NCBI GenBank assembly: GCA_944386725.1
Contig: CALXCE010000005.1
Span: 10,331-74,330, forward strand
DNA length: 64,000 nucleotides
Reading direction: 5' to 3'
Origin: an uncultured Clostridia bacterium
GTDB taxonomy: Bacteria; Bacillota; Clostridia; TANB77; CAG-508
Shown here: piece after piece, positions 35,182 through 35,608 of the stretch
Position numbering within the stretch: position 1 is the first letter of the stretch
Layout: each line of letters begins with the position of its first letter
Notes under the pieces: generated by a model
What the model was told of the DNA's origin: nothing
Seen by the model: the letters and a program-made list of their open reading frames with translations, nothing else
Database searches by the model: none
Program-made: the position numbers and the translations under genes

Positions 35182-35608
35182 TTTCGGTTTTTTTCATCAT
35201 GTAATGCCAGCCCTGGGGGGAAGATGGTTAAATTTTTGAAATTACCTTGTTCATTCCACTTTGAAAAGAAATTGTATAGTAGGAAAATGTGCCGCTTTCA
35301 TGCTCAAAAGCAGTGATTTATCTATTTTGAATAAATGACGAATGCAACTTAAATAGTTTACAAATTCTTTAACGAAAGCCATAAAAGGTCCTGTTTTCGG
35401 GTATAGTTATGGCTTTCGTTCTAGAATTTGTTAACGTTATGTAAGGAAGCCGAGGAATTTATGAGAAATAGATAAATCACTGCTTTTGCCCTGAACATTT
35501 CTCATTTTCCTACTTAACAATTTCTATTTCTCGTTCCAATCAAGCGGTAATTTTAAAAATTTAACCATCTTCCCCCCAGGACTGGCATTATATGATAAAA
35601 AACCGAAA
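35182..35608. repeat. 427-bp imperfect palindrome (two arms of about 210 bp, mosaic conservation)
   Basis: Outer 65 nt tttcggttttttt-catcatgtaatgccagccctggggggaagatggttaaatttttgaaattacc pairs with its reverse complement at 35544-35608. Further paired blocks exist, plus a central hairpin aacgaaagccata/tatggctttcgtt (35371-35420). No ORF. Lies between divergent promoters. Confidence 0.85.

Follow-up and report, generated by a model that had tools for sequence, protein, structure and literature searches.

A nested palindrome between the clpE and membrane-protein promoters of an uncultured gut Clostridium: a candidate foldback element with conserved loops and re-paired stems

How is a palindrome of 427 bp that fills the gap between two divergent promoters to be explained? 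The question is raised by positions 35182-35608 of a 64-kb stretch of DNA (contig CALXCE010000005.1, positions 10,331 to 74,330; hereafter the window, meaning this whole stretch) from an uncultured gut Clostridium that is seen in metagenomes only. The palindrome lies between a clpE-like gene and the gene of a membrane protein. The explanation that we favour, with somewhat better than even confidence, is a nested, lineage-specific foldback element, non-coding and read as a folded single strand, that resembles repetitive extragenic palindromes (REP) and miniature inverted-repeat transposable elements (MITEs). Its innermost 265 bp (35264-35528) would be one copy of a family with a conserved apex, conserved asymmetric loops and paired stems of free sequence. 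Around this core would lie a species-specific stem layer of 52 bp and, outside that, what is left of a small native hairpin of the site.

An earlier note, made from the window sequence alone, had described a mosaic palindrome of this size and place, with an outer 65-nt block of about 92% complementarity and several inner pairing blocks split by segments that do not pair. The repeat search, the fold and the promoter positions bear this description out. Four concentric arm pairs form an imperfect palindrome around a 22-nt apical loop. The outer arms (35190-35246 and 35546-35602; 57 nt, 93% complementary) are extended by a perfect 12-nt pair (35182-35193 and 35597-35608), so that 65 nt pair at 92.3%. 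Three inner blocks follow, at 35264-35289/35503-35528 (stem I5; 88% complementary), 35305-35336/35457-35488 (91%) and 35356-35384/35407-35435 (stem I4; 90%), and the unpaired segments between successive blocks are of matching length on both arms (17/17, 15/14 and 19/21 nt). The folding energy of the + strand is -209.6 kcal/mol, compared with -89.8 +/- 5.6 kcal/mol for shuffled sequences (z = -21.5; 0 of 100 shuffles as good), and that of the - strand is -196.5 kcal/mol (z = -17.5); each strand forms one long hairpin. The palindrome is far above chance expectation. Within the window, which has a G+C content of 29.4%, the arm motifs are confined to the palindrome (0 expected). Since the identical element sequence occurs in four more contigs (three samples, two studies), the palindrome is a genuine genomic feature and no assembly artefact.

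The outermost layer (TTAAGTTTCGGTTTTTTT, 35177-35195) agrees at 19 of 19 positions with the left arm of a mini-hairpin of 50 nt found at the same site in L019 and L023 (compared loci are designated by L and a number), and probably represents an older small hairpin that is native to the clpE spacer. Its partner on the right arm (35597-35608) is truncated in the window haplotype. The outer left arm (35182-35246, 65 nt, containing CCCTGGGGGG) is 92.3% complementary to 35546-35608; the outer right arm (35546-35608) is degenerate relative to it, with five mismatches or indels and its outermost part deleted. Among the loci of other species examined, no homologue of the outer arms was found except the 19-nt site hairpin in L019, and the idea that these arms form a dispersed family of their own was dropped. 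Two unpaired segments of 17 nt separate the outer arms from the core, on the left at 35247-35263 (not conserved in the homologue) and on the right at 35529-35545 (from repeat search and fold).

The core itself recurs in other species. Positions 35276-35506 match L012 5982-6212 (79% identity) and L030 1-108 (81%), both at contig ends; the L030 copy is partial. A second assembly of the L012 species (L104) covers a complete copy at 2967-3466, a hairpin of 485 nt with its core at 3085-3343. This copy lies upstream of htrA, between htrA and a gene for a 171-aa protein, in a second spacer with divergent promoters at a distance of 2.5 kb from the clpE site. At the corresponding position the window has an empty site of 99 bp. 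A covariance model of the core (R1) gives 226-253 bits on the known copies and detects nothing else over 680 kb of loci. Window and L104 share the complete layout from the outside inwards (outer stem, loop, I5, loop, I2, loop, I4, apical loop), and a small A/T internal mismatch in stem I5 is conserved as well (2x2 in the window, 3x2 in L104).

Comparison of the copies suggests which parts of the core (35264-35528, + strand; stems I5, I2 and I4, two asymmetric internal-loop pairs and an apical hairpin) are constrained. As a neutral yardstick we used the four-fold codon sites of clpE and htrA, at which the species of the window and that of L104 share 54% identity. Stem I2 (left arm 35305-35327, partner 35466-35488) is close to this value with 58% identity, and 9 of its 31 pairs are altered on both sides. 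The apical hairpin (35356-35435, + strand) is built of stem I4, which is 90% identical with two compensatory pairs and one U:G, and of the 22-nt loop, which is 86% identical and contains a mini-stem CCTG/CGGG. The internal loops L2/R2 are 82% identical. They comprise a left loop (TTGAATAAATGACGAATGC...AATAG; 35328-35355, + strand) and a right loop (35436-35465, + strand), in which ACGTTATGnAnGGnAGCCGAGGAA is invariant in all three species. In the covariation analysis that the earlier note had proposed, 12 of 67 pairs of the three-sequence alignment are altered on both sides while 98.5% of cells are paired, with the limits that only two of the sequences are independent and that a DNA palindrome would show the same. 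Controls in which the partner was slid by 1-3 columns give 0-1 double-changed pairs, and manual comparison of stem I5 adds at least four further compensatory pairs. The stems thus drift at about the neutral rate yet stay paired, with the asymmetric loops and the apex held constant. This pattern does not support two inverted copies of a small-RNA gene, another proposal of the earlier note, because conservation is found exactly where the two arms do not mirror each other.

Could the palindrome instead be a functionless fossil, i.e., a decaying local inverted duplication that is palindromic only through gene conversion between its arms? In the window haplotype the right arm shows visible degeneration, the element is present once in 64 kb and its pairing is purely Watson-Crick, all of which would fit. 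Nevertheless, identity at the apex and in the asymmetric loops is 82-90% where four-fold sites are near saturation (54%), a homologue exists at another locus, and in a decaying duplication the mismatches should be spread out and not restricted to blocks of matching length. The earlier note had named a single-copy, strain-specific sequence as the sign of a fossil; homologues in other species were found instead, and we rate this explanation as quite unlikely.

A further question is whether the fold is used as RNA or as DNA. G:U pairs amount to 2-4% of pairs, with six on the + strand versus two on the - strand in the window and four versus seven in L104. By folding energy, the + strand is favoured in the window but the - strand in L104. 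Assigning an RNA strand by either measure was therefore abandoned, as the two species contradict each other. Stems of exact complementarity reach 61-64 bp in L003 and L104. Rare and strand-symmetric G:U pairs, a flipped energy preference and such long exact stems, together with the lack of an Rfam match, of an evident internal promoter or terminator and of a conserved open reading frame, favour constraint or correction on DNA, where both strands fold equally, and make selection on one strand of RNA the less likely alternative. The rival account, a large structured non-coding RNA gene of about 265-490 nt in which the loops bind a protein or make tertiary contacts and the stems need only pair, would explain the compensatory changes beside conserved loops and apex, the one U:G pair on the + strand of stem I4, the lack of a conserved open reading frame (ORF) and the advantage of 13 kcal/mol for the + strand fold in the window. 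The earlier note had considered a structured long RNA too, and the strong compensatory change speaks for it. Other evidence does not: G:U pairs are equally frequent on both strands and the strand preference reverses in L104; neither a convincing internal promoter nor an evident terminator is found within the element; and none of the 4227 families of Rfam 15 matches beyond generic hairpin hits (sub-threshold plant miRNA-type hairpins at E <= 10 in the element region), the window as a whole giving a glmS ribozyme and one tRNA only. Moreover, the near-perfect stem of 84 bp in L104, with an exact run of 64 bp, is unusual for a bacterial RNA, and the element exists in both orientations relative to the flanking promoters. 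An RNA gene is accordingly unlikely in our judgement. A coding function was rejected: the earlier note's statement that there is no ORF needs amending, as a 43-aa frame exists on the - strand (35251-35382), but on reading the alignments neither this frame nor a GAGGAA-ATG mini-ORF is conserved in L104 or L030, and no gene caller places an ORF in the element. By eye, the palindrome has no match to the CtsR or CIRCE operator consensus either.

Evidence that the palindrome was inserted comes from relatives with an empty site. The comparison covered 80 species-level genomes that encode a homologue of the membrane protein, about 76 of which keep the clpE<>membrane-gene arrangement. The intergenic spacer measures 577 bp in the window and 140-190 bp in most of these syntenic species, and 577 minus 427 leaves 150 bp. 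Close relatives whose membrane protein is 81-87% identical have spacers of 159 bp (L100) and 216 bp (L113) without the palindrome. In the smallest spacers about 17-25 nt separate the two -35 boxes, and without an insert this gap is in general roughly 20-30 bp wide. The search for empty sites that the earlier note had suggested thus returned spacers of 140-216 bp without the palindrome. As the spacer is empty in most relatives, the palindrome is an insertion, and the orthologous sites display a presence/absence polymorphism, to which the htrA site (empty in the window, occupied in L104) adds a second case. Of the four candidates put forward earlier, a MITE-like foldback element is the best supported, though not in its classical sense, on account of the insertion relative to empty sites and of the core at another locus; the conserved termini and target-site duplication that the comparison implies are missing. 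We considered that the outer stems might be inverted copies of flanking target DNA and discarded this idea, the outer stem of L104 having no similarity to the empty site.

The insertion leaves both flanking promoters intact. The clpE-like gene (32721-35093, - strand; a ClpE/ClpC-like AAA+ protein of 790 aa according to the Pfam scan) is preceded by a promoter TTGACT-17-TATGAT (35136-35164, - strand) that abuts the left edge of the element. The gene of the 285-aa membrane protein (35671-36528, + strand; without Pfam match), downstream of which follow htrA (- strand), the gene of the 171-aa protein, rnhB and cdaA in this order, has a promoter TTGCCA-17-TATAAT with TG before the -10 box (35615-35643, + strand) that abuts the right edge. 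Both promoter-like sites keep their sequence and position in all related species inspected, and the stretch ...ATAGTCAA... with the -10 box of the clpE promoter is kept in about 17 species. The palindrome occupies the gap between the two -35 boxes. Among sites scoring at least 10/12, the promoter scan returned the two gene promoters and one inward-facing site across the right edge (35621-35592); the only match wholly inside the element reaches 9/12, and no strong outward promoter was detected there. Both genes hence keep their own promoters outside the element, and any regulatory effect on clpE or the membrane-protein gene is putative.

In two contigs the element is turned around. L003 (sample BRZ_C) and L005 (another ONAT22-1 sample; two studies) carry the whole element in reverse complement with 95.6% identity, encode an identical membrane protein and differ from the window in their flanks at eight positions only, besides a 45-bp deletion in the left flank. 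The inverted element has a 9-bp deletion and two single-nucleotide polymorphisms (SNPs), and its arms are longer and homogenised (71 nt, one mismatch); L003 retains the full outermost partner ...CCAAAACTTAAA. An assembler may mis-orient a segment between perfect inverted repeats, but the orientation in L003 is probably supported by reads, since its exact inverted repeat of 61 nt is shorter than the k of 77 implied by the exact 77-nt overlap of L004 and L008 from the same project. On the clpE side of L003 (1-1430, corresponding to window 33710-35181), clpE has lost its promoter to the 45-bp deletion, its ribosome-binding site has changed, and two neighbouring codons for YY have become stop codons; at a coverage of only 2.9x, this looks like pseudogenisation of clpE in the inverted strain.

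Both orientations thus occur across samples and haplotypes. The earlier note had listed an invertible or phase-variable segment bounded by 65-bp inverted repeats, and the inverted copies between near-identical flanks support this candidate in part. In its strict form, the element would be a programmed switch that alters the expression of clpE or the membrane-protein gene. Both orientations come from natural samples of one species, contigs of several samples break inside the element as those of mixed populations would (L004, L005, L008 and L112), and the clpE promoter is lost in the inverted haplotype. On the other hand, the two conserved promoters lie outside and no strong outward promoter lies inside; no recombinase is encoded by the 29 window ORFs scanned against Pfam, just as the earlier note had reported none in the flanks; the two stop codons in clpE point to decay and not to regulation; and the homologous element of another species sits at a different locus. 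Because the orientations also differ by an indel, SNPs, homogenised arms and changes on the clpE side, they look like two separate lineages and not like a fast switch, and we consider a programmed switch very unlikely. Recombination or template switching between the arms would be the simplest cause of the inversion.

We therefore return to the foldback element and to how it may have come about. The core would be recognised as a folded single strand, most likely as DNA that is exposed during replication or by cruciform extrusion; DNA is preferred here because the pairing is almost purely Watson-Crick and strand-symmetric. The loops would provide sequence-specific contacts and the stems would serve as spacers. 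A hairpin-recognising enzyme that acts in trans may move the element, or may have done so in the past; a possible candidate is a single-strand transposase of the HUH/Y1 type, a class that leaves no terminal repeats and no target duplication. Insertion might favour the tips of hairpins already present in negatively supercoiled spacers between divergent promoters, which would yield a nested mosaic, and the change of orientation would have arisen by recombination or template switching between the arms of 61-71 bp without a dedicated invertase.

Several observations weigh against this scenario. The termini are not conserved: the outer stems of 65 bp (window) and 84 bp (L104) have no detectable similarity, although each is near-perfect. 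There is no convincing target-site duplication, the window flanks reading ...TTTTAATA / TCATGG... and the L104 flank being an ambiguous A-run. As to copy number, the 64-kb window holds one copy, and the family is present in only 3 of about 85 species sampled (about 8 kb per species), two of the copies being independent and full-length. All known copies lie at most 3 kb apart in one synteny block; the sampling forces this pattern, yet a local history without mobility fits it too. Exact-pattern scans gave 0 matches in JGI metagenomes (outer-arm and conserved-loop motifs) and 0 in IMG/VR (five motifs). No mobilising enzyme can be linked to the element, the Pfam scan of the 29 window ORFs having yielded neither a recombinase nor a transposase. 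A Y1 transposase does occur in the lineage at the same spacer (L015), without a link to the family of the window: its IS200-like element and the hairpin families have no sequence in common, and tblastn with the transposase against the window and all loci returned nothing. Compensatory change alone cannot separate selection on the fold from arm-to-arm correction of a DNA palindrome. Finally, a strain of 99% identity has four substitutions clustered in the invariant loop (L112 1-30, corresponding to window 35423-35452; GCCGAGG to GCCCAGG). These are probably errors at the very tip of a contig of 3.7x coverage; if real, they would weaken the argument from loop conservation.

A bolder reading, which we put forward tentatively and consider possible at best, is that the core (apical hairpin and loops with AGCCGAGGAA, GGTCCTGTnTTCGGGTAT and TTGAATAAAT..CGAATGC) is an undescribed kind of functional single-stranded nucleic-acid device. 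It might be a giant recognition hairpin for a mobilisation or priming enzyme, with stems that are rebuilt or captured at each site, or else a large non-coding RNA or cruciform placed by the promoters of protein-quality-control genes. The two copies with known neighbours adjoin the clpE and htrA promoters.

The clpE spacer is a hot spot for other inserts as well. It measures at least 300 bp in 17 of the roughly 76 species, and long hairpins without sequence similarity to that of the window are found in the spacers of L017, L018, L024, L087, L014, L010, L064 and L090. All-against-all BLAST shows that these inserts are composed of a few modules that are also present elsewhere in the loci and in the window. 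The modules occur in varied nestings (L017, L018, L014, L010, L064, L090 and L016): the same interior may sit inside differing exteriors, and two modules that are nested in L090 sit 19 kb apart in the window. The term "mosaic" is hence best read as a nesting of independent hairpin modules. One module ("GTAACAATTCGGGGGGACCAGCAAG") is present in L017, L014, L010 and L064 and additionally at unrelated sites in six other loci. Another is a REP-like hairpin of 29 nt, motif H (ATGATTTT-GGGGACGGAGGAA-AAAATCAT), which is found alone or as two inverted copies that enclose other modules. A third family is represented in the window by a 180-nt hairpin between two + strand genes (60754-60936), with the conserved core TTTTATGGAAA..GTTCA / AAGGGTGCCATAAAAT. 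In the clpE-site inserts of L090, L024 and L087 this core makes up the interior, and the family follows the same rule as the palindrome at clpE: a conserved core, unrelated outer stems and a covarying apical stem (CAAAC/GTTTTG, CACGT/ACGTG, CACGC/GCGTG, CATGC/GCATG).

Further hairpins are scattered over the window. At 41973-42105, a copy of the REP-like hairpin (ATGATTTT-GAGGATGGAGGGA-AAATCAT) is followed by a 23-nt stem pair; the sequence is related to the outer layer of L090, and its loop recurs in L073 with a different, still complementary stem (CTGTTTTT...AAAAACAG). A second large nested palindrome lies at 46191-46482, where a BofA-like gene and glmS converge. Its arms of 60 nt are 97% complementary, an inner perfect pair of 22 nt is found at 46268-89/46386-407, and the centre is G+C-rich, non-palindromic and without Rfam match. 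A solo copy of its arm (85%) lies at 50563-50621, and related sequences are present in L027, L100, L052, L014 and L064. A short intergenic gap at 56940-57019 holds a perfect 29-nt inverted pair of GGGGAC...GTCCCC mini-hairpins, one with GTAG. A related hairpin is situated at the 3' end of pgsA (32104-32130) and another one in L023; GGGGAC occurs 13 times in the window versus 4.35 times expected.

Protein-coding inserts were seen in the same spacer as well. L015 (2014-3500) contains an IS200-like Y1 transposase gene (PF01797, E = 9.6e-23), which is flanked by short G+C-rich hairpins and accompanied by about 700 bp of unexplained sequence of higher G+C content without Rfam match. In L030 (406-1257) and L051 (2674-3087), genes for prepilin-like proteins with an N-terminal ITLIALVITIIVLLILAG motif are inserted between clpE and the membrane-protein gene. 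Metagenome contigs of the lineage break off inside hairpin elements very frequently, as do those of L004, L005, L008, L012, L030, L089, L091-L095, L103, L105-L107 and L112, and such breaks probably account for the length of 1-3 kb of most contigs with the membrane-protein gene.

Elsewhere in the window, a glmS ribozyme precedes glmS (48367-48522, - strand; 87.6 bits), and the single tRNA (51140-51213, + strand) is directly followed by a hairpin with arms of 34 nt (51218-51290). An agr-type module spans 52532-55515 and comprises AgrB (52532-53158), a LytTR response regulator (54802-55515) and an adjacent ORF of 311 aa without Pfam match. At 4480-5538, 12 tandem copies of a 69-bp unit (65-83% identical to the reference copy) form part of a 364-aa ORF (4458-5552, - strand) that presumably encodes a repetitive surface protein.

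If the foldback explanation holds, this uncultured low-GC lineage of gut Clostridia would possess a rich, undescribed set of large foldback repeats that stack at particular promoter spacers and obey an unusual rule, by which loops are conserved and stems vary freely as long as they pair, contrary to REP and MITE elements. This bears on the question how palindromic repeats can spread when they have neither terminal repeats nor target duplications, and on fragmented metagenome assemblies, at least a dozen contigs ending inside such elements. It also bears on the annotation of "structured RNA" in microbiomes, as DNA palindromes can mimic RNA covariation. A concrete family and a covariance model are available for a search for a hairpin-recognising enzyme. 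Overall, the interpretation in the earlier note is partly supported.

Among known systems, the single-strand initiation origins ssoA and ssoU of rolling-circle plasmids come to mind by their shape. They are plasmid-borne, about 160 nt long, and form a large imperfect hairpin with the CS-6 sequence in the loop and one functional orientation (PMC5703833, PMC4598088); their RSB box reads TTATGCCGAGAAAATTT (PMC4598088). An initiation or promoter hairpin of the sso type, or of the Frpo type known from conjugative plasmids, at which RNA polymerase recognises single-stranded DNA, would agree with the large size of the hairpin, its orientation specificity and its bubbles of about 15 nt; and in an ungapped comparison the most conserved motif of the element, AGCCGAGGAATTT, matches the RSB box at 10 of 13 positions. 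This likeness, drawn post hoc, rests essentially on one hexamer (GCCGAG, in a GCCGAG-A/T motif). CS-6 (TAGCGT) is not present in the apical loop AAGGTCCTGTTTTCGGGTATAG, and the element is chromosomal, without a replicon and two to three times longer than known sso origins. The Pfam scan of the 29 window ORFs revealed no Rep, relaxase or plasmid or integrative and conjugative element (ICE) context, and in BLAST searches the element matched none of 50,697 phage and 72,556 plasmid records. An origin of this type is highly improbable on these grounds.

Two other systems share part of the architecture. The attC sites of integrons are 57-141 nt long, flank gene cassettes and need an integron integrase, and their unpaired bases give polarity. 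Like the element, they conserve a fold while their sequence varies, and they are recognised as single-stranded hairpins; unlike them, the element has no cassette or integrase context in the window. Invertons, the invertible promoters of gut bacteria, have a non-palindromic interior with a promoter and an invertase that acts on short inverted repeats. The element likewise is an intergenic segment of a few hundred bp bounded by inverted repeats in a gut anaerobe, with both orientations in metagenomes, but its interior is palindromic, the promoters lie outside and no invertase is present among the 29 ORFs scanned.

The closest relatives are found among dispersed palindromic repeats. MITEs such as Correia, ERIC/IRU, RUP and bcr1 are defined by conserved terminal inverted repeats, which match those of a parent insertion sequence (IS), and by target-site duplications. 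In common with them, the element is a non-autonomous insertion that is missing at orthologous empty sites, folds into a hairpin, lies near promoters and takes part in nesting. In contrast to them, its termini are wholly unlike between copies while the centre is conserved, no IS with matching ends was found and there is no target duplication. REP units of 20-40 nt have a conserved GTAG-type head and a conserved stem and are mobilised by REP-associated Y1 tyrosine transposases (RAYTs) in Escherichia coli and Pseudomonas. The element would resemble REP units, their bacterial interspersed mosaic elements (BIMEs) and their doublets (REPINs) in being an intergenic, non-coding and dispersed hairpin, with inverted doublets and mosaics, no target duplication and recognition as a folded single strand. 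It differs from them by a unit of 265-490 nt and by conserved loops with variable stems, the reverse of REP. No RAYT was found either, as the window has no Y1 homologue, with an IS200-like Y1_Tnp in the related species L015; and the small REP-like hairpins of the lineage (motif H) are a module separate from the window element. The element is thus most like REP/REPIN and MITE-type repeats, yet it departs from each of them in the very features by which that class is defined.

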